Positions 9,673-56,132 are shown, numbered from the stretch's first letter. The stretch is 64,000 nucleotides of DNA from an uncultured Lachnospiraceae bacterium (GCA_934351255.1 CAKRJH010000003.1:120588-184587), one strand, 5' to 3'. The notes: generated from the letters alone by a model not told the origin. Numbers and translations are program-made.

Positions 9673-9813
9673 AACGCGCTCCAATTTCTAAATTATTACT
9701 TAATTCTATTCCATTGCCGTTTATTGGTGATTGCATTGGCCAAAAAATTGTCTTATAATAGGAAAATGTGACGATTTGGGGTCACTGTGTATTCAGAAAG
9801 GATGTACTTACTT

Positions 9814-12800
9814 ATGAAGTTACCATGTCATACTTTAGGAATTGATATCGGATCTACCACAGTTAAAATCGCCATCCTCAACCCGGAGGGCGAGATTATC
9901 TTTTCCGATTATCAGAGACATTATGCCAATATCCAGGAGACATTGGCATCTATTATAAACGACGCTTACCGGGAGCTCGGCGACCTGCCTCTCTCCCCGG
10001 TCATCACCGGTTCCGGCGGACTGGCACTTGCCAAGCATCTGGACATTCCCTTTGTGCAGGAGGTTGTGGCTGTAGCCACCTCCCTGAAAGATTATGCACC
10101 GCGCACCGACGTAGCGATCGAGCTTGGCGGTGAGGATGCAAAGATCATCTACTTTACCGGTGGAATTGACCAGCGTATGAACGGAATCTGTGCCGGAGGT
10201 ACCGGTTCCTTTATCGACCAGATGGCCACGCTGCTCAAGACAGACGCCGCCGGCCTGAATGAATATGCAAAAAACTATAAAATGATCTATCCGATCGCTG
10301 CCCGCTGTGGTGTGTTCGCCAAGACGGATATCCAGCCTCTGATCAATGAGGGTGCGACCCGCGAAGATCTTGCAGCCTCCATTTTCCAGGCGGTGGTCAA
10401 CCAGACGATCTCCGGTCTTGCCTGCGGTAAGCCGATCCGCGGTAATGTCGCATTTCTGGGAGGTCCCCTGCACTTCCTGACCGAGTTAAAACAGGCATTC
10501 ATCCGCACCCTGGATCTGAAGGGTGACGCGATCATTGCCCCGGATCACTCCCATCTGTTTGCGGCATCCGGTGCTGCCATGAATGCAAATCCGGATGAGA
10601 CGATGTCCTCACTGGAAGCACTCCGTGAAAAACTCTCTCACCACATTGAGATCGAGTTTGAGGTGACACGTCTGGAGCCTCTGTTCCGTGATGAACAGGA
10701 ATATCAGGATTTTCTGGCAGATCACTCCAAAAAGGATGTCAAGAAGGGGGATCTTTCCACCTACCGCGGCAACCTGTTCCTGGGTATCGATGCCGGATCC
10801 ACGACCACCAAGATTGCCCTGATCGGTGAAGACGGAACTCTGCTTCACTCCTTCTACGGCAACAACAACGGAAGCCCGCTCAAGACCTCGATCCAGGCGA
10901 TCAAGGACATCTACGCGCGTATTCCGGAGGGCTGTCAGATTGTCCGCTCCTGCTCCACCGGTTATGGTGAGGCTCTGTTAAAATCCGCGCTTCTGCTCGA
11001 CGAGGGCGAAGTCGAGACCGTAGCCCACTACACCGCGGCAGCATTTTTCGAGCCGGATGTAGACTGCATCCTGGATATCGGTGGCCAGGACATGAAATGT
11101 ATCAAGATCAAGAACCACTCCGTCGACAAGGTACAGCTCAATGAAGCCTGTTCCTCCGGCTGTGGTTCCTTTATCGAGACCTTTGCCAAGTCCCTGAACT
11201 ATGAGGTGTCTGATTTTGCCAAGGTAGCTCTGTTTGCCAAGAATCCGATCGACCTGGGTTCACGCTGTACCGTATTTATGAATTCCAAGGTCAAGCAGGC
11301 ACAGAAGGAAGGAGCGACCGTCGCTGATATTTCCGCAGGCCTTGCATACTCTGTCATTAAGAATGCCCTGCTAAAGGTTATCAAGCTCACCGATCCAAAG
11401 GATCTCGGTACGCGCGTGGTAGTACAGGGCGGAACCTTCTACAATGACGCTGTTTTGCGCAGTTTTGAGCGCATCTCAGGATGTACCGCAGTCCGCCCGG
11501 ACATTGCCGGTATCATGGGTGCATTCGGTGCCGCGCTGCTGGCCAGAGACCATTATGAGGGACAGCAGACGACCATGCTGACATTACAGCAGATCAATGA
11601 CCTGAAATATGAATCCAGCATGGCACGCTGCAAGGGCTGTACCAACAACTGTCTGCTGACCATCAACCGCTTTACCGGCGGCCGTCAGTTTATCTCCGGC
11701 AACCGCTGTGAACGCGGACTGGGCAAGCAGAAAAACAAAGACAATATTCCAAATCTGTTTGAATACAAGAACAAACGGCTGTTCCAGCATTACAAACCGC
11801 TGGACGAGGAGCATGCAGTCAGAGGATCTGTGGGTATTCCACGTGTTCTGAATATGTACGAGAACTATCCGTTCTGGTTCACATTCTTTACGGAACTGGG
11901 CTACCGGGTTGTCCTGTCGCCGGTCTCCTCCCGTAAGATCTATGAGCTGGGCATCGAGTCCATCCCAAGCGAGTCCGAGTGTTACCCGGCCAAGCTGGCT
12001 CACGGACATATCACCTGGCTGCTACGTCAGGGACTGGATTACATATTCTACCCATGCATTCCATATGAGCGCACCGAGGTGCCGGACGCCAACAACCACT
12101 ACAACTGTCCGATTGTGACTTCTTATGGAGAAAACATCAAGAATAACGTCGAGGAACTGAAGGATCCTAAGATCAAATATCAGAATCCGTTCCTCTCCCT
12201 GGAATCCGAAAAGATTGCGACCAGCCGTCTGGTGGATTACTTTACCGCAGAGAATGACATCCCAGCCACTGAGATACGCCGCGCCGCAGCACTTGCCTGG
12301 AAAGAGATGGAGAATGCCCGCGAGGATACCCGCAGGAAGGGCGAGGAAGTGCTCGCCTATATGGAGAAGACCGGTCGCCGCGGCATTGTGCTGGCCGGCC
12401 GTCCTTACCATATCGACCCTGAGATCAACCACGGTATTCCGGATCTGATCGCATCCTACGGTGTGGCAGTCCTGACCGAGGACAGCATCTCTCACCTGGG
12501 CGAAGTCGACCGTCCTGCCATCGTCTCAGACCAGTGGATGTACCACTCCCGTCTGTACAAGGCAGCATCCTTTGTCCGTACCAGAGACGATCTGGATCTG
12601 ATCCAGCTCAACTCGTTCGGATGTGGACTGGATGCCGTCACCACGGATCAGGTCAGCGATATCCTGACCAAATCCAACAAGATCTACACGGTACTCAAGA
12701 TCGATGAGGTCAACAACCTTGGAGCAGCCCGCATCCGTATCCGCTCCCTTCTGGCGGCGGTCAAGGAGCGCGAGCGCAAGAACATCAAACCGGTGCAGGC

Positions 12801-14055
12801 GGATACCGCACATCACCGTGTGCTGTTTACCCAGGAGATGCGAAAGGACTATACGATCCTCGTCCCACAGATGTCTCCGATCCATTTCGATATCCTGCAG
12901 CCGGCCATGCGTGCCTGCGGCTATCAGGTCGAGGTCATGCCAAGTGATCCGGAATGTGTGGACTACGGTCTCAAATACGTGAACAATGACGCATGTTACC
13001 CTTCACTGATCGTAGTAGGCCAGTTTATGCGTGCCCTGACTTCCGGCAAGTATGATCTGAACCGAACCGCCCTGATGATCACACAGACCGGCGGTGGCTG
13101 CCGTGCGACCAACTACATCGGCTTCATCCGCCGTGCCCTCGAGAAGGCCGGCATGGGACAGATCCCTGTTATCTCCGTCAGCGCAGGCGTGGAGACCAAC
13201 CCCGGTATGAAATACAGCCTCAAACTCATTCATGCAGCTCTGCAGGCTCTGTATTACGGCGATGTATTTATGCGCGTGCTCTACCGCACCCGTCCTTATG
13301 AGGCGGTACCGGGTTCTGCCAATGCCCTGCATCAGAAGTGGTTAAAGATCTGTCAGGATGCCGTAACCCATCCAAACAAGGCACAGTTCAAGAAAAATGT
13401 GCGCCAGATCGTCCGCGAATTCGATGAACTTCCTCTGCGCGAGGATGTCCGCAAGCCGAGAGTCGGCATTGTCGGAGAGATCCTGGTCAAGTTCATGCCG
13501 CTTGCCAACAACTATCTGGTAGAGCTGCTGGAAGCAGAGGGTGCTGAGGCCGTCTGTCCGGATCTGATGGACTTTATGATGTACAGCCTGTACAATGCCA
13601 ACTTTAAGGCAGAGTACCTCGGCAAAAAGAAGTCCTCCGCAAAGATCAACAATCTGCTGATCTCCTATCTGGAGAATTACCGGAAAGCAGCCAATGACGC
13701 CTTTGCCGCAAGCAAACGCTTTGAGCCGACGACTCCGATCTCCAAGCTGGCCGAATATGCAGATCCGATCGTCTGCGCCGGCAATCAGACCGGTGAGGGA
13801 TGGTTCCTGACCGGTGAGATGGTCGAGCTGATCCACTCCGGTGTGCCAAACATCGTGTGTGCTCAGCCATTCGGATGTCTGCCAAACCACGTCGTAGGTA
13901 AGGGTGTTATCAAGGAGCTGCGCAACCGCTATCCGGATTCCAACATTGTAGCCGTAGACTACGATCCGGGTGCCAGCGAGGTCAACCAGCTGAACCGTAT
14001 CAAACTGATGCTTTCCACCGCGGTCAAGAATCTGAATGAACCGGTGGATGCCTGA
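9814..14055 (+). CDS. Acyl-CoA dehydratase activase-related fusion protein (2 x BadF/BadG/BcrA/BcrD ATPase and 2 x HgdB-like DUF2229 domains)
   Basis: [15 protein letters not shown] at the N-terminus and a second [15 protein letters not shown] copy further in (each with CAGGTGSF or CSSGCGSF) mark two activase ATPase domains. The long intervening and C-terminal regions are cysteine-containing. Total about 1410 aa. ATG 9814 was chosen (SD AAAGGA 11 nt upstream). The track ORF starts at GTG 9787. Confidence 0.8.
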
Positions 14056-15523: not shown

Positions 15524-15639
15524 AAATTTCACTGTCAGTTGTAGTTCTTCACCAATGGTTGGTTCTCCTTTTTCATCAAATTCAATATTCTAAACATATT
15601 AGGGTTAGGATGATCATGAGATAAAGGATGGATAATAAC

Positions 15640-16044
15640 ATGAAATATAAAGATGACAGCATCCAGATCGATCCGGATGAGCTGAAGCGTCTGATGATCC
15701 AGATTGGAGACCGGTTCCGGATGCAACGGATAAAATACCATATGACACAGGATCAGCTTGCGGAGATCCTCCAGTGTTCCACAGCACATATCTCCGAGAT
15801 CGAGCGCGGCAATAATATGTTTTCCGAAAAATTTCTAATCAAGCTGTTCCTGTGCACACCATTTTCTCCCAACGCATTGTTCGGCGGTCTGGAATCTCCT
15901 CTGTATTCCCATCAGCAATACGATGGTCAGCCAACACTCAGGGATTCTGCTTCCTACCTCTCATCCCAGGAGATGATGCCGGTCTCAGAACACAACCGTA
16001 TTATTGATGATCTCACGGATATTATTCATTCCCTGAAACGCTAA
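15640..16044 (+). CDS. XRE-family helix-turn-helix transcriptional regulator
   Basis: HTH segment MTQDQLAEILQCSTAHISEIERGNN. ATG 15640 has SD AAAGGATGG 8 nt upstream. Diverges from the CPBP protease gene. Confidence 0.7.
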   Translation: MKYKDDSIQIDPDELKRLMIQIGDRFRMQRIKYHMTQDQLAEILQCSTAHISEIERGNNMFSEKFLIKLFLCTPFSPNALFGGLESPLYSHQQYDGQPTLRDSASYLSSQEMMPVSEHNRIIDDLTDIIHSLKR

Positions 16045-16246
16045 AAAAAGAGCAAAACCAGCGTTTTGCTCTGGCAAGAATTTCTTCGAAATTCTTGTTG
16101 GCCTGTCACCACATTACAGCATTTTCCTATCACAAAAAAAAGAGCAAAACCAGCGTTTTGCTCTGGCAAGAATTTCTTCGAAATTCTTGTTGGCCTGTCA
16201 CCACATTACAGCATTTTCCTATTATATAAAAAAGAGCAAAACCAGC
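16045..16246 (+). repeat. Tandem array (2 full units plus 1 partial) of an approximately 90-bp unit with two hairpins, in the 3' UTR of the XRE gene. A related array lies at 56133-56330.
   Basis: Units 16045-16133 and 16134-16224 are near-identical: aaaaaaGAGCAAAACcagcGTTTTGCTCtggCAAGAATTTCttcGAAATTCTTGttggcctgtcaccacattacagcattttcctat. A partial third copy runs 16225-16246. Confidence 0.8.
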
Positions 16247-16256
16247 AAAAAATATA

Positions 16257-16310
16257 CCCCGCTTCCCTCCGGTACATCTCAGTACCAGAGCAGGAAGACG
16301 GGGTTTTATA
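16257..16310. terminator. bidirectional terminator-like GC-rich hairpin
   Basis: CCCCGCTTCCCTCCGGTAC-atctca-GTACCAGAGCAGGAAGACGGGG followed by TTTTAT. The minus-strand side is also T-rich. It lies between convergent genes. Confidence 0.55.
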
Positions 16311-16352: not shown

Positions 16353-17717
16353 TTAGTTCTTGAAGCTGTGGATCGGAGCCGGGATACGTCCGCCTCTGTT
16401 GACAAAATCATCACAGGCAAACTGATTGACCGGCATGATCGGTGCATATCCGAGCAGACCACCAAATTCAACAGTCTCTCCGACGCCCTTTCCGATCACA
16501 GGGATCAGACGTACCGCCGTGGTCTTCTGGTTGACCATACCGATGGCCATCTCATCCGCGATAATACCCGCGATCGTCGCCGGTGAGGTATCTCCCGGCA
16601 CGGCGATCATATCCAGACCAACCGAACATACGCAGGTCATCGCCTCCAGCTTCTCCAGCGTCAGACATCCGTCATTGACTGCATTGATCATACCCTGATC
16701 CTCGCTGACCGGGATAAATGCGCCGCTGAGTCCGCCGACATAGGAAGATGCCATGACACCGCCCTTCTTCACCTGGTCATTGAGCATAGCCAGGGCTGCT
16801 GTCGTACCCGGAGCACCCGCTCTTTGCAGTCCCATCTCCTCAAAGATATCCGCAATACTGTCTCCGATCGCCGGTGTCGGTGCCAGAGAAAGATCGATGA
16901 TACCAAATGGGATCCCCATACGCTTGGAAGCCTCTCTGGCTACAAGCTGTCCCACACGTGTGATCTTAAATGCCGTCTTCTTGATCTTCTCTGCCAGATG
17001 ACCAAAGTCTGTACCATGCTCAGACTCCAGCGCTTTTCTCATAACACCAGGGCCGCTGACACCGACATTGATGATCTCATCTGCCTCTGTCACGCCGTGG
17101 AATGCACCTGCCATGAACGGATTATCATCCGGTGCATTACAGAATACCACCAGCTTGGCACATCCAATGCTGTCGCGGTCTGCCGTGCGCGCTGCGGTCT
17201 GATGTACGATATCTCCCATCAGACGAACCGCATCCATGTTCAGACCGGTCTTGGTGGAACCAAGGTTTACCGAACTGCATACAAAATCCGTCACTGCCAG
17301 GGCGTCCGGGATGGAACGGATCAGCAGCTCATCGCTCACAGTCATTCCCTTGGATACCAGTGCACTGTATCCTCCGATGAAGTTGATCCCCAATGTCTTG
17401 GCCGCACGATCCAGCGTCCTGGCGATCGTCACGTAATCCTCCGGCGTCTTGCAGGCCGCTGCTCCGATCAGTGAGATCGGAGTGACTGAAACACGCTTGT
17501 TCACGATCGGGATTCCATATTCCCTCTCAATATCCTGTCCGGTCTTCACCAGATCTTTGGCCACCGTAGTGATACGGTTGTAAATCTTTTCATTTAACCG
17601 GTCGAGATCGCTGTCAATGCAGCTCAGGAGACTGATACCAATGGTAATGGTACGCACATCCAGATTCTCCTTCTCGATCATATTATTGGTCTCAGTAACC
17701 TCATGTATATTAATCAT
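16353..17717 (-). CDS. UPF0210 (DUF711) PFL-like family protein
   Basis: [31 protein letters not shown] matches the conserved UPF0210 N-terminus. The gene is paired with the upstream ACT-domain gene. ATG 17717 has SD GGAGAA. Confidence 0.85.
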
Positions 17718-17817
17718 GTCATTCTCCATTCTGAAGCGCCCCTCGTCACCGGCCGCTGTGGATCAAACCGTCTGTGTCCACATGTCCTGCGTGGCGCTCC
17801 TTCGTGTGCCGGGATTA

Positions 17818-19916: not shown

Positions 19917-20927
19917 ATGAAAAAGACTCGTGAAAACAACAAAAAAGACCTGCCGGTACTCACGGCGGGTGATTTTATTCTGCGCATGGCAAACCGCATC
20001 AGCGAGTCCGCCATGAGCGCATATGCAGGGCAGGCCGCTTACATGATGATCCTGTCCTTTTTTCCGTTTCTTCTGTTTCTGCTGATCCTGGTTCCATATA
20101 CCCCGCTGGATGCCAACTATCTCATCACCGCGATCGAGAATTTCATCCCGCATACCTTCCAGGGAGTCCTTACCTCTCTGGTATCTGAGGTCTACCAGTC
20201 CAATGCCAGCAATGCCGTGACCATCATCTCATTGACCGTCATCACCATGATCTGGCTCAGCTCCAAGGCATGTATGTCCCTGATGATCGGTCTGGACCGG
20301 ATCTACAAGGTAGAGATCACGGTGCCGGAAAAAGGACGCATTGCACGGTTTTCCCGCCGCATTCCGGAGGCCAATGCGGTCTTCGCCGTCCTGCTGTGGA
20401 TCTACAAGCGTCTGGCAGCCATGCTGTACACCGTGGTATTTGCCGTTCTGCTGATCGGTTCCCAGCTCTTTCTGGTCTTCGGAAACCAGCTCTACCAGAA
20501 ACTTCTCGACCTGTTTCCGTTTCTCGGACACGTCGTATGGCCATACTTCAGCATGCGTACTCTGCTGATCTTTGCCTTCATGGTACTGTTCTTCAATTTC
20601 TTTTACTGGCATGTACCGACGGTAAAGCCCAAGATCTGGCGGCAGTTCCCCGGCGCGATCGTCGCGGCCGGCGGCTGGATCAGTTTCTCCAAGATCTTTT
20701 CCTGGTACGTGGATCATTACAGCAATTATCAGTCCTTCTACGGGGCCATGACCAGCATCGCATTTATCATGGTCTGGCTGTATTTCTGTATGTGCATCCT
20801 GTTCTTCGGTGCCGTTCTCAACAGCATCTGGGGAGAATACCGGGAAGAGTACCACAGGGCACTCAATTCCCTTTCTTCGTCTTCGGATACCCCACATGAC
20901 ATCCCGGATAATAAAACGACAGAATAG
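19917..20927 (+). CDS. YihY/BrkB-family (ribonuclease BN-like) membrane protein
   Basis: Polytopic sequence with the typical YihY N-terminus (...RISESAMSAYAGQAAYMMILSFFPFLLFL...). Confidence 0.8.
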   Translation: MKKTRENNKKDLPVLTAGDFILRMANRISESAMSAYAGQAAYMMILSFFPFLLFLLILVPYTPLDANYLITAIENFIPHTFQGVLTSLVSEVYQSNASNAVTIISLTVITMIWLSSKACMSLMIGLDRIYKVEITVPEKGRIARFSRRIPEANAVFAVLLWIYKRLAAMLYTVVFAVLLIGSQLFLVFGNQLYQKLLDLFPFLGHVVWPYFSMRTLLIFAFMVLFFNFFYWHVPTVKPKIWRQFPGAIVAAGGWISFSKIFSWYVDHYSNYQSFYGAMTSIAFIMVWLYFCMCILFFGAVLNSIWGEYREEYHRALNSLSSSSDTPHDIPDNKTTE

Positions 20928-22548
20928 CATCCGCTTTATGGTGGTCCTTGGCCATCGTACAGGCTCCGGACTGGCTCATTCCGATCCCATGTCCAAATCC
21001 GCCGCCATAGACCATCAGTCGGTCTCCGGCCACCCGCACGTAAAAGGCATTGGACGGCAGCATGGTCTGACCGGCCTGACGCAGTCCCCCGGTCAATGTC
21101 AGGGATCCATCCGAAATCTGCAGGATCCGCCGCATCACCGTGGTATCTGAGATCACGCGGCTGGTGTCTCCTATGATCCGAATTTCTTTGACCAGACCGC
21201 TCTTCGTCCGTCCGGTCACTTCCACTCCGGTCACATTGGCCACACCGCTTCTTGCGGAAATCTCCGACAAATTGACATGTGCATTCCAACGGTACCAGAT
21301 GTCATCGCTGTCATACATTTTCCAGTCACATTTCCGGATAAATTCCTCAAAATCCTGATTATCAGACAGATCCACTTTCTTCTCAGCCTGGTCTGCCGTC
21401 GTCTTTTCCTTGCCATCCCGGAGCTGCCATCGGCCAGTCAGATATTTTTCCTCTCCGCCCCATACCTCAGACGCATCCGCACTGTGCCCCCAGGAGGTCG
21501 CATAGTAATAGGTAGCCGCAAGATTATTTTTGTAGAGCAGCACCTGCCCCACCGTCTGCCGTACCGCCCGTATGGTACTTTTCGTCTCAGCAATGTTATT
21601 GTATACCTGAAAGGTCGTGCTGTCGTCCAGATCGGCCTGATACTGCGGATAACGGTTCCCGTCAAGCTGACGAAGCGCATAGCTTCTCGCACAGATGGCC
21701 TGCGCCTTGAGCGCCTCCAGCGGTGAACCGGTTCCGATCTCACTGGACACTACACTGTACAGATACTGTCCCAGTGTCACCTGGCTGACTACCGCCAGGC
21801 CGTCCTCGTAACCGGTAATGTCCAGCACGCCCCGATAACTCGGGTGTCCACAGGTTCGGGTGATGCTGCTTAACTGTAGCCTTCCATGGTCACTGCCCAC
21901 CCGGACTGTCTGACTGCCGTCCTCTCCGAGCTCTCCCATTGAAAAATAAATCTGTTCTCCTGCGCTGCAGTCATGCCGCACCCCATCTTTTTTGTAGTAA
22001 AATGCCTTGTCACAGGTAATGACAACCTCCCGGTGCAGCAATGCCTCATAGCCATCCGTCTTGATCAGGACACGGATCTTTCTGGCATCGATCTTCTTCG
22101 CCCGCTTTTTCTGGCGCACAAGCTGCTCCTGACGCTGCTTTTCCTGTCTGGCCGCGATCTTCTCCTGCTGCGCCTGATACAGCCGCTCCGACAGCACGCA
22201 CAGAAATAGCAGCACCACAATACACGGTACTGCCACTCTCCAGTCTGATATATCAAATTTCTTTTGTGGCTTCCTCTTGGAAGATTTTCCGGTCATCCGC
22301 CGAGCAGACACTCCGGACTTTCTGCGGAACTGCGACGTTTTGCGTGTGGAGCGGATGCCTGCCGTGCTCCGCTTTCCGGCTGTCCCTCTCCGGCTCCGGC
22401 CGGATGCATTGCTTCGGCTCCCGCCGGTTGTCCTGCTTCGGCTCTGGCCGGTTGCCCTGCTTCGGCTCTGGCCGGTTGTCCTGCTTCGGTTCTGGCCGGT
22501 TGCCCTGCTTCGGCTCTGGCCGGATGGCCGTTTCTTTGTCGTGCTCAC
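20863..22548 (-). CDS. SpoIID/LytB-domain protein with an N-terminal Ser/Arg-rich repeat region and a TM anchor
   Basis: The C-terminal two-thirds is SpoIID-like (...AICARSYALRQL..., ...YYATSWGHSA...). The N-terminus is (T/A)GQ(S/N)RSR repeats followed by a TM helix. The track start is GTG. An internal ATG at about 22296 would exclude the repeats from the coding region. Confidence 0.7.
   Translation of the reverse strand: MSTTKKRPSGQSRSRATGQNRSRTTGQSRSRATGQSRSRTTGGSRSNASGRSRRGTAGKRSTAGIRSTRKTSQFRRKSGVSARRMTGKSSKRKPQKKFDISDWRVAVPCIVVLLFLCVLSERLYQAQQEKIAARQEKQRQEQLVRQKKRAKKIDARKIRVLIKTDGYEALLHREVVITCDKAFYYKKDGVRHDCSAGEQIYFSMGELGEDGSQTVRVGSDHGRLQLSSITRTCGHPSYRGVLDITGYEDGLAVVSQVTLGQYLYSVVSSEIGTGSPLEALKAQAICARSYALRQLDGNRYPQYQADLDDSTTFQVYNNIAETKSTIRAVRQTVGQVLLYKNNLAATYYYATSWGHSADASEVWGGEEKYLTGRWQLRDGKEKTTADQAEKKVDLSDNQDFEEFIRKCDWKMYDSDDIWYRWNAHVNLSEISARSGVANVTGVEVTGRTKSGLVKEIRIIGDTSRVISDTTVMRRILQISDGSLTLTGGLRQAGQTMLPSNAFYVRVAGDRLMVYGGGFGHGIGMSQSGACTMAKDHHKADAILSFYYPGCHVGYPKTKKGN
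22401..22520 (-). repeat. 5 x 24-bp tandem repeat (CCGGTTGYCCTGCTTCGGYTCTGG) encoding GQSRSRxT units
   Basis: The direct repeats are visible in the sequence. They lie inside the 5' end of the SpoIID-like ORF. Confidence 0.7.
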
Positions 22549-25316: not shown

Positions 25317-25323
25317 TATCGAA

Positions 25324-25396
25324 GCTGAAAAAGGGACTTGAACCCTCGACCCCTTCATTACGAGTGAAGTGCTCTACCAACTGAGCTATTTCAGCA
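25324..25396 (-). tRNA. tRNA-Thr (anticodon CGT)
   Basis: The reverse complement folds as a cloverleaf: GCTGAAA-TA-GCTC-AGTTGGTA-GAGC-A-CTTCA-CTCGTAA-TGAAG-GGGTC-GAGGG-TTCAAGT-CCCTT-TTTCAGC-T. The anticodon loop has CGT. Confidence 0.85.
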
Positions 25397-25542
25397 TTTG
25401 TCAGTCTCGTACTACGAAACCGACAATCTAAAGTATACTTGGTATTCTCTTATTTGTCAATAAAGCAAATGGTTTTTCTTTGAATCCTGAAATGAAATTT
25501 TAAGTTGATTAACCATTTTACATTTTCCCATCACTATGTTAT

Positions 25543-25992
25543 TTAACATTTATCAAATGCTTCTTGAAAAATAACATTTAAAGCATCATAAAATGCATGC
25601 TCTTCTTTTTGATTTTTAGGTCCCAAAAGAGCTTTTCCAAGAACACCCATCTGCCGAGTTGATACTTCTCTTCTCCAGTTTTTGCTGTCTCCGATCATAT
25701 ATTGTGTCAAATAACAACCATTTTCATTATTGTCTAATGCAAACGCATATCCATAATAATCGTTCATATGCATCGTATTATATATTGTAATACATGGATA
25801 CACTCTTCCAAAAAGTCCTTTTTTCTTACATTCATCTTTGGTAATCGTTAAATTAATTCCATTCAGCTCTGCCAAGTCCGATATAATCTGTGCAAACAAA
25901 TCTAATGAAAAATCACCTCGACAAAATAATGGATTACCACAAATTCTTTCATCTAATACTTTAATCATTTTTTCTTTCGATGTATAAAACAT
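25543..25992 (-). CDS. hypothetical small protein, candidate immunity protein for the upstream nuclease
   Basis: 149-aa ORF directly downstream of the nuclease-like gene (toxin then immunity order). No family recognised. Confidence 0.4.
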   Translation of the reverse strand: MFYTSKEKMIKVLDERICGNPLFCRGDFSLDLFAQIISDLAELNGINLTITKDECKKKGLFGRVYPCITIYNTMHMNDYYGYAFALDNNENGCYLTQYMIGDSKNWRREVSTRQMGVLGKALLGPKNQKEEHAFYDALNVIFQEAFDKC

Positions 25993-26198
25993 CTGCTCCT
26001 TTCTACATAATATACAAGTTCAGGTTAGATAACGTATTTCCTCCTTTCTGTAGCTTTGTTAAATTTATCGTCTGTTCAAACGATATTTATCCTCATAAAA
26101 TGCCATTCCTATTTGGGCACTCTTACAAGCATCTGAATCTCAATATTCCGGATTTCCGTAAAGTAAATCCAATTCTGGTGAACAAACATCGCAATAAT

Positions 26199-26651
26199 TT
26201 ATATATCGTCTGCTTCTTCCGAAAGTTCAAACTCTTCTTCATTTAGATTTTCATTTGTTAAAGAAAAAACTTCTTCTTGTTTTTGACCTCTTTGATCTGT
26301 AATCGTATAGCGTCCCATTATTGCATGTGGACGCTTCGTATTATCCTGATAATACGGTTCAATTTCGACATGTACTTCATTACCGCGCTCTAATTCATCA
26401 GCCCAGGTGTTTTCAAATGTTTTATATGCACTCCGGTTTATAAAACGATTCTGTGCAATCAAATTATTTAATTCACCACTTCCACCAAAGCGGCTGCCGA
26501 TCAAATGTCCTCCATCGTCTGTATCACGCCGAAATTCACCTCCTGCTTTTAATTGAGCAGAAGTATCTCTTACCCCCTGTTCCAAGCGCAAATCTCCCTC
26601 CGCCAAAATAATTCTTCCCTCATCATCTTTTTCATATGAATATCCATTCAT
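26199..26651 (-). CDS. small HNH/EndoVII-superfamily (GH-E-like) nuclease toxin-domain protein. It may be the C-terminal part of a frameshift fusion with the upstream acidic ORF.
   Basis: ...DDGGHLIGSRFGGSGELNNLIAQNRFINRSAYKTFENTWADELE... resembles polymorphic-toxin nuclease domains. There is no SD before its ATG. The ORF continues in frame upstream for 12 codons, up to the in-frame stop at 26688-26690; that stretch includes the A-run. Confidence 0.5.
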   Translation of the reverse strand: MNGYSYEKDDEGRIILAEGDLRLEQGVRDTSAQLKAGGEFRRDTDDGGHLIGSRFGGSGELNNLIAQNRFINRSAYKTFENTWADELERGNEVHVEIEPYYQDNTKRPHAIMGRYTITDQRGQKQEEVFSLTNENLNEEEFELSEEADDI

Positions 26652-26662
26652 TTCATATGAAT

Positions 26663-26992
26663 TTATCTCGTCTTTTTTTTTACATACTCATAAACCTCTG
26701 GATCTTCATCTTCCCCCATCTCCTCCCACTCATCAAGCATTTGATTTAATTCATCAGAAATATCTTGTTCTTCATAATCTTCTCTGACATCGGGTTCCAT
26801 ATCTCCTACATCTTCATAGTCCTCTGAAATGTCGACTTCATCAGGGTAATATTCTGCAACTTCATCATAGTCAATATCACTTGCATCATACTCCACATCT
26901 TTAACACCAAGCATATCATCCAACACAGGGGTATCTGCAATATCACTACCGATATCATCAACATATTCCATATCACAACTCATATCATCCAT
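26663..26992 (-). CDS. highly acidic (about 45% D/E) small protein; its 3' end contains a dnaX-type -1 frameshift heptamer
   Basis: MDDMSCDMEYVDDIGSDIADTPVLDD...EDPEVYEYVKKKTR. ATG 26992 overlaps the ATPase stop by 8 nt. It ends with GTA AAA AAA AAG ACG AGA TAA. Confidence 0.5.
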   Translation of the reverse strand: MDDMSCDMEYVDDIGSDIADTPVLDDMLGVKDVEYDASDIDYDEVAEYYPDEVDISEDYEDVGDMEPDVREDYEEQDISDELNQMLDEWEEMGEDEDPEVYEYVKKKTR

Positions 26993-29648
26993 TTTTCTCA
27001 CCGCCTTTTACAAACAGAGTAATCAGTTTAATTTTTTCCTTATCATCCATTTTATATAATTTGTCATTCAACTGAAGTTTTCGAAACAATTTAATCCTTA
27101 CACAAATAATAAATTCCCGATCATTCCTATACCCCATCGCTGCTATTTTTTTTGCAAAAAGTGATGGAATACTTAAAAACACACCTCGAATTGTTCTTTT
27201 TTTATCTGCATTCTTATATAACGCATCAGCACAAACTGCATAGGCCTCGCTAGAAATATATTCTGCATCTGCCTTGATTCTAAAATTACAACCATCACCA
27301 TATAATCCACACAGATAACACTCTTTATATGGACATAACAATTTTTGCTTATTATCCCAGTAATGCATCAATTTTCTAATCAAATCATTGTCTATGCTTA
27401 ATTTAATTTGTTTCTTTTCTCTTATATCCTCCGTCATCACAAGCTGCGGTTTATTAAATGCTGTAGAATAAACATACGCTTCACCAACTTGCAAACCGGA
27501 GAGAGTTTCTTCCATTTCTGCATCCATATTGGTACTGTTAGCAATCAGTCTTCGTTCTGATGCCTCCACAAGCCGAAACATAATTTTTGTATCTGTGGCA
27601 GCAATGATATCATGAGTCACTTTTGACGGTGATTGATCCGCAATAATAACCCCCGTTCCATACGCCCTGATTTCTTTAAGCATCCTCTGTAATGAACTCA
27701 CTGTTGATGATCCTGCAGAAATATCCGAATTATCCCCTCTTCCTTCCGGAGATAACAGAACATGTGCCTCATCAATCATCAAAACATTTTTGAGTCTGGT
27801 TCCTATACTTGAACTATTTATCTTGGTATATGCGCAAACATCAACCAACAATAACGCCATTATTAATGCTTTTTGCTCCATGTTTTCTATGGAATTCAGT
27901 TCTATAATGGTCGGTCTTGAAATTAAATCTTCAATAGGTATGGTATTGATTGAATCATAAATATTGCTATTCATATCAATTAAATTCATCAATCGCATAA
28001 CACCTGCTGTTTCCAAATTTGATTTTACATCCTTGCTATAATTTGATGTTTGAAGCAATTTCTTAAACACTAAAATAAATTCGTGTAAACCAAATATAGT
28101 AACATCCTTGTCATCAGATGTACTATAATCCTTCCACCCGTATTTCGTATAGCATCGTTGAATGGCGTTTTGGAATAATAAATCTAATGGTGATGGCATA
28201 GAAAAAGCAGCCATAAATGCACTTACCAAAACAGGTTTATATTGCTCCACCGTAATTCCTTTCAATGGAATAAACGGATTAATAATAAATGGAGAAACAC
28301 TAACATTTCCCGGTGTAAAAATTTGTATATCCGGTAGTTGTTCTATTAATGCTCTATACTCTGTCTTAGTCGGTTCGACAATCAAAAACGGAATATTTCT
28401 TTCAGCAAATTGCAACATCAAATTAATAGAAAAGGTTGTTTTACCAGTTCCTGGCATGCCAACAATCAATACATGCTTTGACAGTATTCTTTCGTTACAA
28501 CCAATAGTAATCTTTTTCAGATCTGATGATATTAATTGTCCAAACTTTATATTAGAATCACTAATAATCTCTTCTTTTAACTGTTCTCTTTGCTTTTTAT
28601 ATCTGGTTTCCTCAATACCTGACATATTTCCATCGTAAACCGGCAAACGAAAAAAAGAAATCAATTCTTCGATCGTCATCATCAGCGGAAGTCGATACAA
28701 ATAATTGGAGAGTGGAATGTATTTACGAATTTTCATATTTCTATATTTGTACATTAATAAGGCACTTACGTTCCATATATAATTCGGAAATTCATTGATT
28801 ATGCTGCCAATACTTTTTGATATATCAATACAACTCGCTTCAAAACTACCGATATTACTGTCTCCACCTTTTAAAAGGCTGATAATTTTGGCAGATAAAA
28901 CAGTACAATCTTCTTTGGTTCCAAAAACCAATAAATTGGATAAAAACATAGGTGCATCCCGATTATCTTTATAATAAGATAATACTTCAAACGGTTCCTG
29001 AGCACATGAATCCTTTAAAAGTTGTCCATTAACAGATATTCCTTTTGATAATCCCTCCAGTTCAGAACAATGTTGTACTAATATTGCGATTTCATTCTCA
29101 TACAATTTTGTTGGTAGTATACTAAACGAAACACCGCAATTCTCCATCTGACTCAAAGTATTGATCAGAGATGCCAACCCCTCAGTATTATTTGATGGAA
29201 TAATCTCAGTATAATAAAATGGACAGACACTGGATGGATTAATAACCACCTTTTCCTTTTTTTCTACAGCATATACCAAACTTTTAACATCCTGTCTCCA
29301 AAGATCATCGAACGTTTGACGGCAATGTTCTGAATCTTGACAAAAATATCCAAAATCCGATACTACATTTTGAATGTTATTTATAAGCATTTTTACACGC
29401 GATACTGCTTCTGCGCTTACGTTGTCTATCTTTCGTACAACAATATAAATATGGATTTTCGAGGCATATGATTGATTATCAACTTTCTCGGTCAACCAAA
29501 TGATTTCATAAGCAACATTCTGATTATCAAGTCTATACAACTCTCCTAAAACACTATCAAAATCTGAAATTGTGTCTGAGAAAGTAACAATTTCCAGCAT
29601 ATCAACTGCCAAGAAACGATTGTCTGCTAATTCATACACCTGTACCAT
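26985..29648 (-). CDS. FtsK/HerA/VirB4-type P-loop ATPase (DUF87-like), 887 aa, with a Cys-rich C-terminus
   Basis: Walker A VGMPGTGKTT followed by FLIVEPTKTEY (HerA-like DP.GEY). Walker B VLMIDEAHVLL. IIADQSPSKV matches the TQRP-like motif. The C-terminus carries CPYKECYLCGLYGDGCNF. Confidence 0.7.
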   Translation of the reverse strand: MVQVYELADNRFLAVDMLEIVTFSDTISDFDSVLGELYRLDNQNVAYEIIWLTEKVDNQSYASKIHIYIVVRKIDNVSAEAVSRVKMLINNIQNVVSDFGYFCQDSEHCRQTFDDLWRQDVKSLVYAVEKKEKVVINPSSVCPFYYTEIIPSNNTEGLASLINTLSQMENCGVSFSILPTKLYENEIAILVQHCSELEGLSKGISVNGQLLKDSCAQEPFEVLSYYKDNRDAPMFLSNLLVFGTKEDCTVLSAKIISLLKGGDSNIGSFEASCIDISKSIGSIINEFPNYIWNVSALLMYKYRNMKIRKYIPLSNYLYRLPLMMTIEELISFFRLPVYDGNMSGIEETRYKKQREQLKEEIISDSNIKFGQLISSDLKKITIGCNERILSKHVLIVGMPGTGKTTFSINLMLQFAERNIPFLIVEPTKTEYRALIEQLPDIQIFTPGNVSVSPFIINPFIPLKGITVEQYKPVLVSAFMAAFSMPSPLDLLFQNAIQRCYTKYGWKDYSTSDDKDVTIFGLHEFILVFKKLLQTSNYSKDVKSNLETAGVMRLMNLIDMNSNIYDSINTIPIEDLISRPTIIELNSIENMEQKALIMALLLVDVCAYTKINSSSIGTRLKNVLMIDEAHVLLSPEGRGDNSDISAGSSTVSSLQRMLKEIRAYGTGVIIADQSPSKVTHDIIAATDTKIMFRLVEASERRLIANSTNMDAEMEETLSGLQVGEAYVYSTAFNKPQLVMTEDIREKKQIKLSIDNDLIRKLMHYWDNKQKLLCPYKECYLCGLYGDGCNFRIKADAEYISSEAYAVCADALYKNADKKRTIRGVFLSIPSLFAKKIAAMGYRNDREFIICVRIKLFRKLQLNDKLYKMDDKEKIKLITLFVKGGEKNG

Positions 29649-29654
29649 ACTTTA

Positions 29655-31358
29655 TTAACCTCTCAATCCCTGTATATAATCATCTAATTCGCTTATTTTA
29701 TTTACGCATGTTTCATACGTTTCTTTTTGTTTTTCCAAATCAGCAATAAAAGACTCAAGCACCTGCTTTTTTAAGGCAATAGCATCATAATTTTTTTGTT
29801 CTTTCTGCAACGCTGTCTTTTTTGTGAGCGCTTCAATATGCCAAACAACACCACGATAAAAAATTCCCCATAGAATAAAGATTACTACACCTGTGAACAC
29901 ACCATCCATTATGCTTTCTGTAACGCAGATATACAACACCCAAACTATACATGCTATAAATGACAATCTGAAATCATGAGGTTTCGATAATTTCTTTATT
30001 TTAGGTTTCAGTTCGTTCAGTTGCAACTGCAACATTTTAGTTTCTTCCCTTTTCTGGCTAATCTCCGGCGATACATCACTATATCCTGCAATCTGATCTT
30101 GATAATACTTTTTCTCCTCTTCTGCTTCACCTATTTTCAGTCGCTTATTCTGCTCCTGCAGTCTTCTTATATAGTCTTTCCACTCCTCCTGTATCATTTT
30201 CGCCTTATCTGGATTTGCAACAGTGATTGCATGTTGTACCATATTTTGCATCTCAGAAGCCAACTCATTGTCCAAATGGGTTAAACACTCACTTTGTACA
30301 TAGGGTACTCCCCACCATCCACGATAATCTTCCGGATACCTATTTTGCATTTCAACATATAATTCATATGCTTTTTGCGTTTCATTCAGTTTCATAAAAG
30401 TTTCCGCATTGGCTGCTAAACGGTTCACCTCAGATGTTTCTTCATTTGAGAGAATCCCGGTCTTTCTTTTGTTGTTTTGTATGACGTTGTTAACACCCTC
30501 TACCAGATATTCCACATAGCCTATTTTGTTCAGATCAAAAGATTGAAATGCCGAAAATTCCATTGGCATTTCATACGGAGACATATTTTTAAAGCAAGCA
30601 ATCAGTGTTTTGTCTTTATTTTCTTTCTTTAGTTCCAAAAAACGAGACCATTCATTCTTTACCCAGGTAGAATTATAATATTCCGTTTTAGTTCCCAGAA
30701 CAATCATTACCGTTGCACTCATCAATGCAGCATATATGTACGGTTCATACTCTTGTCCAAGCTTACTTTCCAATGATTTTTTTGCAAAAAATGTACGGTA
30801 TCCCGCCTGCTCTAACGAATTATAAATATTATATGCTATCATGCTGTCTTCTGTTGGCTCTCCATTTTCCATCTTATCTTTGTAACAGATAAAGACATCA
30901 TATGGCTTCTCTTCTTTTACAATTTTAATATACTTATTATAAATCTCGTCAATTTTGGTCGCTTCTTCTTGAAAAACATAAGATTCGTATATATCTGCAT
31001 TTTGCAACGCTGCTTTATAATCCGGATCATCAAAAATAGAATGATCCTGTATTCTATGACATGTCGGTTTCCTTTCTCCCCCAATATCATTTACATACTC
31101 AATACCATATCGGCTTAAAACCATTCCCCAATGAGCCGCTGAATCTTTATGATCTTCTCGAAGTAAATCATCAAAAACAGATATTGCACCATCAAAATCC
31201 AGATTTTGTCTTAAAAACGTAGCACGATTAAATAAATTTTCTATTTTGTCCTTATTTTGGGATACAATCATTTTTGAATCACAATACTTGCATGTTGCTA
31301 TTGAAGTACTTTCATCAAAATCGATATTCGCTCCACACACTTCACACTTTAATATCAT
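29655..31358 (-). CDS. zinc-ribbon TIR-domain protein with a coiled-coil region and two C-terminal TM helices
   Basis: N-terminal CEVCGAN...CKYCDS zinc ribbon. TIR core YDVFICYKD ... ALMSATVMIVLGTKTEYYNSTWVKNEWSRFLEL, in which WVKNE corresponds to the catalytic WxxxE. Two TM helices (LSFIACIVWVLYICV, GVVIFILWGIFY) lie near the C-terminus. SD GGGAGGT. Confidence 0.7.
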   Translation of the reverse strand: MILKCEVCGANIDFDESTSIATCKYCDSKMIVSQNKDKIENLFNRATFLRQNLDFDGAISVFDDLLREDHKDSAAHWGMVLSRYGIEYVNDIGGERKPTCHRIQDHSIFDDPDYKAALQNADIYESYVFQEEATKIDEIYNKYIKIVKEEKPYDVFICYKDKMENGEPTEDSMIAYNIYNSLEQAGYRTFFAKKSLESKLGQEYEPYIYAALMSATVMIVLGTKTEYYNSTWVKNEWSRFLELKKENKDKTLIACFKNMSPYEMPMEFSAFQSFDLNKIGYVEYLVEGVNNVIQNNKRKTGILSNEETSEVNRLAANAETFMKLNETQKAYELYVEMQNRYPEDYRGWWGVPYVQSECLTHLDNELASEMQNMVQHAITVANPDKAKMIQEEWKDYIRRLQEQNKRLKIGEAEEEKKYYQDQIAGYSDVSPEISQKREETKMLQLQLNELKPKIKKLSKPHDFRLSFIACIVWVLYICVTESIMDGVFTGVVIFILWGIFYRGVVWHIEALTKKTALQKEQKNYDAIALKKQVLESFIADLEKQKETYETCVNKISELDDYIQGLRG

Positions 31359-31373
31359 CAGTACCTCCCATTA

Positions 31374-32627
31374 TTATAAATCCTTTAATTTTTCTCGTTC
31401 AATTTTGAACTCCTCGTCAGTGTATAACCCTTCCTGCCAAGCCATTTTCAAACGTTTTAACCGTTTCATATACTCTTCATCATCAATATGATGCTTTTCA
31501 TTGCATGTATTTTCTACTGATGTTTTCAAATGAACCATTCCCGGTATATCATCACCATCCTCGTTGCCATCGCTAGGGGTTACATTTATATTTGCACTAT
31601 CCTTCTCTGTAATCGGTGTCATTAGACTACTTCCTTGAATTTCATTTCCAAAACTACTCATTGTCTGGCTAATAAACGGTGCCATCCCCATTCCCATTCC
31701 AACTCCCATCATGGGTGCACTACTTCTTCCAATGCCTTCATTAGCTGCCGCAATATCCATCACCCCAAATCCTCTTCGCTGATGTTCCGTCATATTAAGA
31801 GTTTTATTAGCAATACTTTGAGCGATTGCATCGCGTTTTTTTATTTCCTCATCTGCTATATGCTCCGTAATTCTGACATTTGCATTGATTGCAGCTTCTT
31901 TTATCCGATTTTTTTCTTCCATATTCAAGAAAGTATTTTGGGACCATAAATGTTTATACATTTGATAATTAGGATCAGCATCAGATGCATTGATATTATT
32001 CACGTATAGATCCACCAACGCTATTCCGTATTCAAACATATAACTGGAAATTGCCTTTTTAAGCTGTTCTGCAATTCCCATTGGATTACTCTCAAGATTA
32101 AAAATCGACGTATTTTCTTCTCTTAAAATTGCGGGAAGCCATTGTTTGATGCATGAAATGATGATTCCTTTAAAATATCTCATCATATGTTCCTGATCGA
32201 ATTGTGTTTCCGTCCCAACCAACTTCAATAATATTTTTTTTGAATCCACTACTTTGATACTCATTTCACCGGACGTGCTAATAGAAAATGGCGGCAAATT
32301 CATGCTTGGATCACTATATTTTATATCTCCAACACCCCAATTAATTGCCATTTGCTCCGTCTTGTTTACAAAATATACTTCACAATGAAATGGTGATATT
32401 CCATCACTCGGCAAATTGATCAGTTTGTTTAAAATAGGTATATTTTTAGTCTGTAACTTATATGATCCTGGTTGAAAGATATCTGTCAACTGACCATCTT
32501 TAAAAAAAGCTGCCTCTTGTGTTTCATGTACAATTAAGGTTGAATGAGTATTAAAATCTTCTCCTGGAAACTTCCATACAAATGTTCTATTATTTATTTC
32601 ACCCTTTATTATGTCAAATATTTGCAT
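31374..32627 (-). CDS. SPFH/band-7 domain protein (YdjI-like) with a C-terminal SHOCT-like domain
   Basis: MQIFDIIKGEINNRTFVWKFPGEDFNTHSTLIVHETQEAAFFKDGQLTDIFQPGSYKLQTKNIPILNKL is the YdjI-type SPFH N-terminus. The C-terminal EEYMKRLKRLKMAWQEGLYTDEEFKIEREKL is SHOCT-like. ATG 32627 has SD GGGAGGG. Confidence 0.7.
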   Translation of the reverse strand: MQIFDIIKGEINNRTFVWKFPGEDFNTHSTLIVHETQEAAFFKDGQLTDIFQPGSYKLQTKNIPILNKLINLPSDGISPFHCEVYFVNKTEQMAINWGVGDIKYSDPSMNLPPFSISTSGEMSIKVVDSKKILLKLVGTETQFDQEHMMRYFKGIIISCIKQWLPAILREENTSIFNLESNPMGIAEQLKKAISSYMFEYGIALVDLYVNNINASDADPNYQMYKHLWSQNTFLNMEEKNRIKEAAINANVRITEHIADEEIKKRDAIAQSIANKTLNMTEHQRRGFGVMDIAAANEGIGRSSAPMMGVGMGMGMAPFISQTMSSFGNEIQGSSLMTPITEKDSANINVTPSDGNEDGDDIPGMVHLKTSVENTCNEKHHIDDEEYMKRLKRLKMAWQEGLYTDEEFKIEREKLKDL

Positions 32628-32637
32628 ATGTCCCTCC

Positions 32638-33228: not shown

Positions 33229-33343
33229 TTCCTTTCTATTCTTTGTATCTTTATATTTAAAACCACATAATGATTATTATGGTTTTAGAAACAAAAAAAC
33301 TCCCCATAAAAACAATAGGAAGAAAATGAAAAAGCCAAATTAG

Positions 33344-33372
33344 TTGCATAAAACATTTAAAAATGGTATAAT
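33344..33372 (+). promoter_or_regulatory. near-consensus sigma-A promoter (TTGCAT, 17 bp, extended TGgTATAAT) pointing antisense into the integrase gene
   Basis: Read directly from the sequence. No sizeable + strand ORF follows. Confidence 0.4.
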
Positions 33373-33571
33373 TTTACTAATCTGATTCAACAGAATGGAG
33401 TTCGATTTGACACATTCTGACAACGGATTATATGTAATTTTACTTCATGATATAAACTATAGAATGACAAACGTCAAATTATATAAGAGTTTATGTGCGA
33501 AGTAATTTCCAATGATTTTTATCAAATTACATGTGTCTTTGAATTGCAAAGCCTTGTAAATATCGTACTTA

Positions 33572-55981: not shown

Positions 55982-56132
55982 GTTTTCTTCCTTTCATCCA
56001 TACAATTCATAGTGTTTACATGTGCTGACTGCCTTTCGGTCACATATTTCTGACCATGACAAACAGCCTGATTACGACCAAAGTATAATCAAGCTGTGTA
56101 AAATGCATATTATCGCAATGTAAAATCTATGT

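Follow-up and report, generated by a model that had tools for sequence, protein, structure and literature searches.

A 64,000-nt stretch of the genome of an uncultured Lachnospiraceae bacterium (GCA_934351255.1, CAKRJH010000003.1:120588-184587; hereafter the window) carries two tandem arrays of a ~90-nt two-hairpin unit, array A at 16043-16246 and array B at 56132-56329. Both arrays are probably copies of a non-autonomous mobile interspersed repeat that docks at the T-tracts of transcription terminators and recreates its own target there. Units of this family are dispersed over many Lachnospiraceae loci, lie directly behind host terminators in a fixed orientation, exist as identical copies at unlinked loci, are missing from some orthologous sites and differ in number between strains. 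The family would have spread by transposition.

Tandem Repeats Finder assigned array A a period of 92 (2.2 copies, 97% matches, score 387) and array B a period of 90 (2.2 copies, 99% matches, score 389), with boundaries that agree to 1–2 nt with those of an earlier, sequence-only reading of the same DNA. That reading had described two full units plus a partial copy per array, each unit comprising an A-run, two hairpins (1 and 2) and a tail that is not palindromic, and the sequence of both arrays bears this out, with the partial copy stopping in the loop of hairpin 1. The informative strand of the units, however, is the minus strand of the window, opposite to that reading, since the hairpin with its U-run, the covariance-model scores and the G-U pattern all favor it. 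Reverse-complemented, the A-run and hairpin 1 become a hairpin followed by T6-7, i.e. a canonical intrinsic terminator, which a terminator scan of the minus strand called in all four window units. In this orientation, the unit (~88–92 nt) consists of a ~38-nt tail (the conserved ATAGGAAAATGCTCGTA motif plus ~20 variable nt), an A/U-rich hairpin 2 of 10 bp, three nucleotides, and the G/C-closed hairpin 1 with its T6-7 run, and TTTTTTA bounds units at both ends. With a stem of 8–10 bp, a loop of 4 nt and a fold energy of about -10.5 to -13.8 kcal/mol, hairpin 1 of the window units shows the features of intrinsic (Rho-independent) terminators, namely a G/C-containing stem of 5–14 bp, a loop of 3–8 nt and an adjoining U-tract, and we predict it to terminate transcription in vivo.

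On the minus strand, array A is headed by a 5′-truncated copy (16227-16246), a ~19-nt remnant made of the 3′ arm of hairpin 1 and the T-run, followed by unit A2 (16135-16226) and unit A1 (16043-16134). Within unit A1, hairpin 1 and its T-run occupy 16049-16072 (AGAGCAAAAC-GCTG-GTTTTGCTCT then TTTTTTT; terminator-like in the scan, with a fold energy of -13.3 kcal/mol) and hairpin 2 occupies 16075-16097 (CAAGAATTTC / GAAATTCTTG, loop of 3 nt); the respective modules of unit A2 lie at 16141-16164 and 16167-16189. The tail of unit A1, which forms the 5′ part of the unit (16098-16134), contains in the alignment the conserved family motif ATAGGAAAATGCT and then a more variable stretch. Array B, equally on the minus strand, begins with a partial copy (56312-56329, AGGTTTTGCCGTTTTTT) that abuts the stop codon of a 77-aa open reading frame (ORF), and continues with unit B2 (56222-56311) and unit B1 (56132-56221). 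Terminator scans placed hairpin 1 of unit B1 at 56140-56159 (GGCAAAAC-GCAG-GTTTTGCC then GTTTTTT), and the hairpin 1 module of unit B2 spans 56230-56249.

A covariance model of 90 family members scored the window units at 91–96 bits on the minus strand versus 17–23 bits on the plus strand (95–96 bits for the array A matches at 16135-16224 and 16043-16132, 91.6 bits for those in array B). Both hairpins are 99.4% paired across the 90 units, and the non-Watson-Crick cells comprise 63 G-U and 10 broken pairs on the minus strand versus 5 G-U and 68 broken pairs on the plus strand. In a fold test, the units of both arrays were more stable than shuffled sequence (z -3.1 to -5.4). The family alignment revealed strong conservation of the hairpin sequences, including the loop of hairpin 1, and at least 90% conservation of ATAGGAAAATGCT, the stretch adjoining hairpin 2 being the least conserved part. 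The sequence-only reading had interpreted stem differences between the arrays as compensatory and as a sign of selection for structure. For hairpin 2, a T-A to G-C exchange between the arrays supports this; for hairpin 1, one pair is exchanged (A-T to G-C), while the outermost pair is lost. As to selection for structure, the covariation is real but thin, with double-sided changes in 3 of 19 pairs that do not separate RNA from single-stranded DNA. In hairpin 2 of unit A1, pair 48:55 is T-A, where 87 of the 90 family members have G-C. A third hairpin, in the tail, was discarded: RNAalifold does not recover its (G)TGG...CCA(C) pairing, which is confined to a single subfamily.

Read on the minus strand, the unit has the layout of a classical small RNA (sRNA), and the arrays might accordingly hold tandem sRNA genes or regulatory RNAs derived from 3′ untranslated regions (UTRs), i.e. 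~80-nt RNAs with a single-stranded 5′ seed that would act by base-pairing or protein titration. The strongly conserved 5′ motif and the G-U wobble pattern, which fits a structure on the minus strand, agree with this idea, and the E. coli rrn operons, where small RNAs between two terminators are produced by read-through, offer a precedent (PMC8144298). Yet there are dozens of copies per genome, many of them truncated or internally deleted; the seed would be expected beside hairpin 2, in the least conserved part; and occupancy varies between strains and close species. A promoter scan called none on the minus strand of the window units, and no promoter-like site was seen on this strand in or before them, the upstream DNA being a different host terminator at each locus. 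An extended -10 element (TGCTGTAAT) in array A and a TATAAT at one junction were dismissed as unit promoters, since neither is conserved in array B or the family, as was a tiny ORF at AGGAAAATG, whose spacing is too short and whose frame is not conserved. Rfam offered no family either: the window units had no match at the gathering threshold or at E up to 0.1 (the only Rfam hit of the window, even at E up to 0.1, is a tRNA-Thr), nor did four other loci at E up to 1. The "tandem structured sRNA" entertained by the sequence-only reading is hence distinctly unlikely, given the copy number, the lack of a conserved promoter and the frequent truncations.

Within the window, the hairpin patterns are confined to the two arrays (0.00–0.13 matches expected from shuffles), and both nhmmer (--max) and the covariance model, run unfiltered at every position, returned four full units in two loci, without degenerate copies elsewhere. 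Scanning a species-level genome collection with a pattern of 22 fixed bases, drawn from hairpin 2 (3′ arm) and hairpin 1 (core), retrieved at least 114 loci in ~18 genomes, all of them, save one chance match, from Lachnospiraceae. Carriers include Jutongia huaianensis, other Jutongia, Butyribacter intestini, "Roseburia sp. AM59-24XD", "Clostridium sp. AM49-4BH" and metagenome-assembled genomes (MAGs) from human and animal guts, two of the MAGs harboring at least 27 and at least 21 loci. Among the matches listed, a profile search counted 151 units at 127 places, of which 107 were single, 17 double, 2 triple and 1 quadruple. The suspicion that the arrays belong to a repeat family is therefore confirmed well beyond the two window loci, and of the options put forward in the sequence-only reading, a miniature repeat-element family is the best supported by these dispersed multi-copy loci. 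Its exclusion of a CRISPR array likewise holds, since units directly adjoin one another without unique spacers, the inter-hairpin sequence being part of the repeat. No match to the unit was obtained in a plasmid collection, a phage collection or viral contigs.

Tail sequence and the hairpin 2 loop distinguish several subfamilies. Arrays A and B differ in ~18% of their sequence, with an identity of 81.5% between units A and B, while identity to units of other species is 86% for unit A and 90% for unit B. Because each is closer to other species' units than to the other, the arrays are, as judged from these identities, members of different subfamilies and independent arrivals rather than mutual copies. 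Tandem arrays at three further loci (L094 5735-5951, L119 3004-3150 and L120 2801-2945) combine the family's hairpin 1 and hairpin 2, or a variant thereof, with unrelated tails; the two-hairpin module thus seems to form a conserved core, to which different tails can be attached. Searching the literature, we found no description of this repeat family, which is thus previously undescribed in Lachnospiraceae; the kind of element, a small interspersed repeat like the SPRITE repeats discussed below, is already known, and no new category is needed.

The units occupy a stereotyped position. Facing host DNA are 82 unit 5′ ends, and for 49 of them a strict hairpin plus T-run ends within ~10 nt, as compared with 21 of 3000 random windows; most of the remaining 5′ flanks contain longer-looped or imperfect hairpins with a T-run. 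Most units thereby follow an intact host terminator. The sequence logo of the 5′ junction reads T6 (75–94% T) and then A (72%) just before the unit, that of the 3′ junction T6 (82–100% T) and then A (65%) closing it. A check for target-site duplication accordingly found T6A on both sides, but the 3′ copy is the unit's own terminator. Orientation is equally biased: among the matches listed, the upstream gene is co-directional with the unit in 95 cases versus opposed in 21, units in tandem-gene contexts are co-oriented in 48 cases versus anti-oriented in 6, and convergent contexts outnumber divergent ones by 29 to 9. The terminator strand corresponds to the leading-strand sense in 89 cases versus 17 (~84%), and seven units follow the 3′ end of a lagging-strand gene. 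At one locus of the MAG SUG799 (L102 1-1147), a triple array lies directly behind the terminator of the tRNA cluster that trails an rRNA operon (23S rRNA end and seven tRNAs). At four loci from different genomes (L107, L061, L058 and L053), the DNA upstream of units contains another recurrent motif, GCGCGAAAGAGTCGCAAGCGACTCTTTGTTC or GACGCGCAAAGTGGGCAAGCCCACTTTGTTCC, which itself follows a CAATTG-type hairpin and may be a further terminator-like repeat family.

Recent copying is evident from unit sequences. SUG799 contains five groups of identical units, each at 2–5 unlinked loci, and J. huaianensis contains one such group at 3 loci. In the arrays of SUG799, neighboring units are 92–98% identical, yet some units are 100% identical to a unit on another contig, implying that arrays are at least partly built by new arrivals beside a resident unit. 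Orthologous sites, moreover, can be empty: the site of locus L041 versus L060/L084 is occupied in two Jutongia genomes and consists of the host terminator alone in SUG799. Conversely, the pyk terminator is followed by a unit in SUG799 and by none in relatives whose pyruvate kinases are 84–95% identical.

The sequence-only reading had proposed comparing copy numbers between strains, and these do differ. In orthologous contigs from human-gut metagenomes (Hadza and other cohorts), the window's species shows alleles of 1 or 2 full units at locus A; at locus B the number is 0, 1 or 2, and all differences amount to whole units. The 0-unit allele of locus B, with its one copy of AGGTTTTGCCGTTTTTT, keeps 17 nt of hairpin 1. 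Together with junction-specific base differences, this allele argues that the copy-number variation is real.

These observations could be accommodated by the following scheme for a mobile repeat. An existing intrinsic terminator would receive a new copy right after its T-tract, with matching orientation, and the copy's own hairpin and T6A would rebuild the landing site, such that a later copy could dock behind the first. As the hairpin and T6A at the unit end equal the signature that precedes units, head-to-tail arrays would result. Arrays would subsequently gain or lose units by slippage or unequal recombination between repeats, which would account for the 0-, 1- and 2-unit differences between strains. 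A position behind a terminator would offer safety to a selfish element and be largely without effect on the host.

Could the arrays instead have arisen by purely local tandem duplication of a terminator region through replication slippage, with neither a family nor mobility? The 97–99% identity of units within each window array and the whole-unit steps between strains would suit such a process. It leaves at least 114 dispersed and mostly single-copy loci in ~18 genomes unaccounted for, however, as well as the different subfamily membership of the two window arrays and the SUG799 units that match other loci better than their array neighbors. Local slippage is refuted as a full explanation, and we give it next to no weight in that role; it remains a part of array dynamics.

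More weight, though still little, is due to the possibility that the units are host-selected cis elements akin to the repetitive extragenic palindromic (REP) and BIME sequences of enterobacteria, which would reinforce or insulate terminators, stabilize mRNA 3′ ends or bind a protein, and which would have spread by recombination only. Units do reside at gene 3′ ends, co-oriented with transcription, and contain a good predicted terminator (at locus B the sole one between two operons); their hairpins, including the loop of hairpin 1, are strongly conserved; and the triple array behind the rRNA-tRNA operon would fit such a function. Against this, the majority of units are redundant, following a host terminator that is intact; their presence is not conserved at orthologous sites, with unit-free strains in existence; decayed fragments are common; and identical copies at unlinked loci call for a copying mechanism. 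Besides, the idea overlaps with that of a mobile repeat, given that a mobile element can be co-opted. All in all, we regard host-selected elements spread without transposition as unlikely.

Partial copies are frequent in the family. In ~15 cases, a 5′-truncated copy heads an array, consisting of half of hairpin 1 (as in both window arrays), of hairpin 1 alone, or of hairpin 1 with part or all of hairpin 2; tail-only fragments end arrays less often (~5 cases). Internal deletions recur between the similar strings GGAAAATGCT and GGCAAAACGCT, and solo hairpin 1 terminators occur in family loci at ~5x the chance expectation. An old repeat family undergoing recombination would leave such debris; a mechanism that copies RNA would likewise produce the excess of 5′ truncations. 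In that case, the unit might be a bacterial retroposon resembling a short interspersed nuclear element (SINE): a transcript reaching from behind one terminator to a U-tract of its own, whose U-tail would pair with the A-tract opposite a terminator T-run and there prime synthesis of complementary DNA by a resident reverse transcriptase, e.g. that of a group II intron. Docking in terminator orientation, T6A on both sides and the absence of both inverted terminal repeats and a transposase would find an explanation, as would the many 5′-truncated copies at the head of arrays, from half or solo hairpin 1 to hairpin 2 plus hairpin 1, those in the window included. Still, 3′-truncated, tail-only fragments exist as well and no internal promoter is visible. 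We know of no SINE-like retroposon mechanism in bacteria and consider this route very improbable.

Two further observations concern sequences joined to units. At five loci (L126 ~100-143, L054, L092, L122 and L044), the palindrome TTATAGGAAAC(G/A)...GTTTCCTATAA directly abuts units, representing two tail ends of the element joined in inverted orientation; it may stem from recombination or be an intermediate of insertion. In Clostridium sp. AM49-4BH (L021, L042, L085, L110 and L115), the unit forms part of a ~200-nt composite repeat present in at least 5 copies, in which ~105 nt of another short repeat, ending in a terminator-like hairpin of its own, CAATTGC...GCAATTAG plus TTTT, precedes the unit. 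This arrangement suggests a nested insertion, and three short contigs of this genome that break exactly at the composite show that the family fragments short-read assemblies. The longer shared flank of the AM49-4BH loci was also considered as a candidate autonomous element, and proved to be just this ~200-nt composite of the unit and another short repeat.

As to the two window loci, array A lies between convergent genes and array B between co-directional ones, with the upstream gene matching the direction of the unit terminators at both. Upstream of array A and co-directional with it is a DUF711 gene (16353-17729, minus strand; Pfam PF05167, E 2e-195), whose bidirectional terminator (16247-16307; hairpin at 16257-16303) provides TATATTTTTT (16247-16256) in the minus-strand direction and TTTT (16304-16307) in the plus-strand direction. 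Immediately after the minus-strand T-run of this terminator, which is kept in the orthologous loci L001-L008, comes array A. On the other side, a plus-strand gene for an XRE-type helix-turn-helix protein (15628-16044; Pfam HTH_3) converges on the array, and the terminal T/A-run of unit A1 shares bases with the TAA stop codon of this gene (16042-16044). The assignment of array A to the 3′ UTR of the XRE gene, made in the sequence-only reading, was consequently not upheld, as the array follows the terminator of the minus-strand DUF711 gene; by position it is defensible, in that XRE transcripts probably run antisense through the array up to the hairpin at 16257-16307. A gene conserved beside locus A in all strains (9787-14055) encodes a very large protein of 1422 aa, in which ATPase domains of the BcrAD/BadFG type are fused to a DUF2229 CoA-enzyme-activase domain.

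Array B is preceded by the end of a pst operon, with phoU (56560-57216) and the 77-aa ORF (56330-56563) both on the minus strand and co-directional with the array, and is followed by a minus-strand gene for a Na/Pi cotransporter-PhoU fusion (54215-55981; Pfam). Terminator scans predicted hairpin 1 of units B1 and B2 to be the only intrinsic terminators between the pst/phoU operon and the cotransporter gene, and the number of sense-strand terminators predicted over this interval is none in the 0-unit, one in the 1-unit and two in the 2-unit allele. With no host terminator at locus B, hairpin 1 would be the sole terminator between the two operons, and copy number should alter read-through. A promoter-like site of the cotransporter gene (56107-56135, minus strand; TTTACA-17-TAATAT, a consensus match only) has its -35 hexamer TTTACA built from the last T's of array B, and this holds for the 0-, 1- and 2-unit alleles. 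The 77-aa ORF ends in 8 nt, TAG stop codon included (GGAATAGA; 56330-56340), that equal the first 8 nt of the array B units (starts at 56221/56311), so that the C-terminus and stop codon of this ORF may derive from an internally deleted unit.

The arrays lie in the same orientation 40 kb apart, and we considered whether they could be attachment sites of a prophage or an integrative and conjugative element; chromosomal housekeeping genes occupy the interval and its surroundings, and the sole island, at 25.4-34.5 kb, lies well inside the interval and is unrelated to the arrays. This low-GC island (25323-34516; GC 0.32–0.40 versus ~0.50 elsewhere) adjoins the tRNA-Thr gene (25323-25395, minus strand) and encodes a tyrosine integrase (33572-34516), a TIR-domain protein (29655-31358), a HerA/DUF87-like ATPase (26985-29648), an SPFH/Band-7 protein (31374-32657) and a non-specific endonuclease (26199-26651). 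The region resembles an integrated island for anti-phage defense. Elsewhere in the window, a 24-nt tandem repeat (22376-22523; 6.2 copies, 85% matches) inside a SpoIID-domain gene (20863-22548, minus strand) is likely to specify a repetitive linker of low complexity, and a match of 1873-2083 to two other genomes turned out to be the rpmB gene for ribosomal protein L28.

Which enzyme could move the unit? Among known schemes, the best fit would be a trans-acting HUH/Y1 enzyme (IS200/IS605-like, RAYT-type) that inserts 3′ of T6 by single-strand 'peel-and-paste', since the unit has no inverted ends, no evident duplication beyond the retained motif, an insertion point 3′ of a short motif, a right-end hairpin and a strand bias. 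Clustering of neighboring proteins for a recurrent mobilizer yielded no candidate, the top clusters being ABC transporter, GGDEF, radical SAM, MatE and response-regulator paralogues; purF was likewise among the ordinary flanking genes. The ~0.8 Mb of flanking DNA contained no parent insertion sequence with matching ends.

Several points weigh against a mobile repeat moved in this way. The missing left-end hairpin and the dissimilarity of the two hairpins do not fit the HUH/Y1 scheme. Neither a transposase nor a reverse transcriptase is encoded in the 64-kb window, the flanking ORFs of the fetched loci are housekeeping genes that include no mobilizing enzyme, and no split-end autonomous copy, i.e. 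separated unit ends enclosing other DNA, was present in the ~0.8 Mb of fetched DNA. No base-exact pair of an empty and a filled site was obtained: the empty sites come from diverged species, where intergenic DNA is too divergent, and the 0-unit allele at locus B, having kept one AGGTTTTGCCGTTTTTT copy, represents a deletion between direct repeats rather than a virgin target. Copy numbers stem from short-read metagenome assemblies, in which tandem repeats can be mis-assembled (one scaffold has an N gap inside the array), and many of the carrier genomes are MAGs. Genes in these Firmicutes are co-oriented with replication, so transcription and replication are not separable as the cause of unit orientation. 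Finally, the search pattern fixed 22 positions, such that conservation of the hairpin core is partly an artefact of retrieval. Even so, we hold docking of a non-autonomous mobile repeat at terminator T-tracts to be the likely origin of both arrays.

REP, SPRITE and similar repeats without inverted ends are common in bacteria, and their movement and role are poorly understood. The Lachnospiraceae family offers a clean case, with a precise, self-rebuilt T-tract landing site, very recent copying in at least one genome and natural 0-, 1- and 2-unit alleles, in carriers that are abundant human-gut bacteria. It lends itself to tests of the mobilizing activity, of the effect of stacked terminators on read-through (e.g. 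from pst/phoU to the phosphate transporter) and of the breakage of short-read gut MAG assemblies. The family is worth masking or annotating when sRNAs, terminators or CRISPR-like arrays are predicted in Lachnospiraceae, and the copy-number variation of its units could serve as a strain marker.

Among described systems, the nearest to the Lachnospiraceae unit, as a descriptive class and with no sequence homology claimed, is the interspersed repeat SPRITE (Streptococcus pneumoniae), which is terminator-like, is bounded by A/T-runs, is enriched at gene 3′ ends and has no known transposase or target duplication (PMC3049150). The unit shares the features of this class, being dispersed, multi-copy, terminator-folded, bounded by A/T-runs and enriched at gene 3′ ends. 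Both are small A/T-bounded Firmicute repeats that resemble intrinsic terminators, reside near gene 3′ ends, are enriched between convergent genes and lack substantial inverted terminal repeats, an identified target duplication or an identified transposase, and for both a parasitic nature is assumed, with possible co-option as terminators (for SPRITE, PMC3049150). They differ in sequence, which is unrelated, and in host family; SPRITE consists of one 18-bp duplex and a long U-rich tract, whereas the Lachnospiraceae unit has a tail, a second conserved hairpin and a terminator of ordinary size. SPRITE numbers ~30 copies and has a leading-strand bias of 63%, as opposed to ~84% here, and docking behind a pre-existing terminator, head-to-tail arrays and identical copies at multiple loci are not described for it.

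The REP, BIME and REPIN repeats, mobilized by RAYT, a Y1 HUH transposase (PMC3333891, PMC3116915), resemble the unit as short extragenic palindromes at gene 3′ ends, single or clustered, in tens to hundreds per genome, without inverted terminal repeats, with ties to a single-strand HUH mechanism and to effects on termination or mRNA stability. A REP, however, is a single imperfect palindrome following a conserved GTAG/CTAC tetranucleotide, and BIMEs and REPINs pair two inverted REPs, whereas the Lachnospiraceae unit joins two unrelated hairpins and is repeated head-to-tail, and thus departs from REP architecture; inverted tail-to-tail unit fragments exist in small number and are not the rule. 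No RAYT gene flanked by units was found in the window or the fetched loci. REP systems are mainly proteobacterial.

IS200/IS605 elements and their miniature derivatives, the PATEs, share with the unit the lack of inverted terminal repeats and, as far as is evident for the unit, of a target duplication, and insertion 3′ of a short motif that is kept at the left flank; a hairpin beside the right end and orientation with the replication strand are further parallels. The insertion 3′ of T6(A) and the strand bias are compatible with, though not specific to, this type. A 2026 survey reported terminator-like sequences immediately upstream of insertion sequences of the IS200/IS605 family in particular (PMC13548323). 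In these elements, by contrast, the two ends bear similar hairpins to which a single TnpA dimer binds, whereas the two hairpins of the Lachnospiraceae unit are dissimilar and both near its 3′ end, with none near the 5′ end; no tnpA or tnpB was found in the window or the fetched loci.

Classical MITEs (miniature transposable elements with inverted repeats), such as RUP/BOX, Correia and other bacterial representatives, are like the unit non-autonomous, structured, intergenic, shorter than 200 bp and present in many copies, and can affect transcription. MITEs, though, possess inverted terminal repeats, defined target duplications and ends that match a known insertion sequence. The Lachnospiraceae unit lacks inverted terminal repeats, its 5′ end (A)GTGTATAGGAAAATGC and its 3′ end GGTTTTGCCCTTTTTT not being reverse complements; no defined target duplication was identified for it, and no insertion sequence with such ends was seen in the flanking DNA. 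The landing site itself is shared with group IIC introns, which insert just downstream of intrinsic terminator motifs (an inverted repeat plus T's), in terminator orientation (PMC1702495, PMC4748821). The unit is 90 nt long, as against the at least 600 nt, six-domain ribozyme and usual reverse-transcriptase ORF of such an intron. We rejected the unit as a group IIC intron itself, in view of the absent GUGYG, the variable 5′ ends, the lack of anything like domain V and the absence of an Rfam group II match at E up to 1, and hairpin 2 as a domain V, for it has no bulge, catalytic triad or GNRA loop. What the Lachnospiraceae unit and group IIC introns have in common is thus the site they occupy, directly behind an intrinsic terminator.

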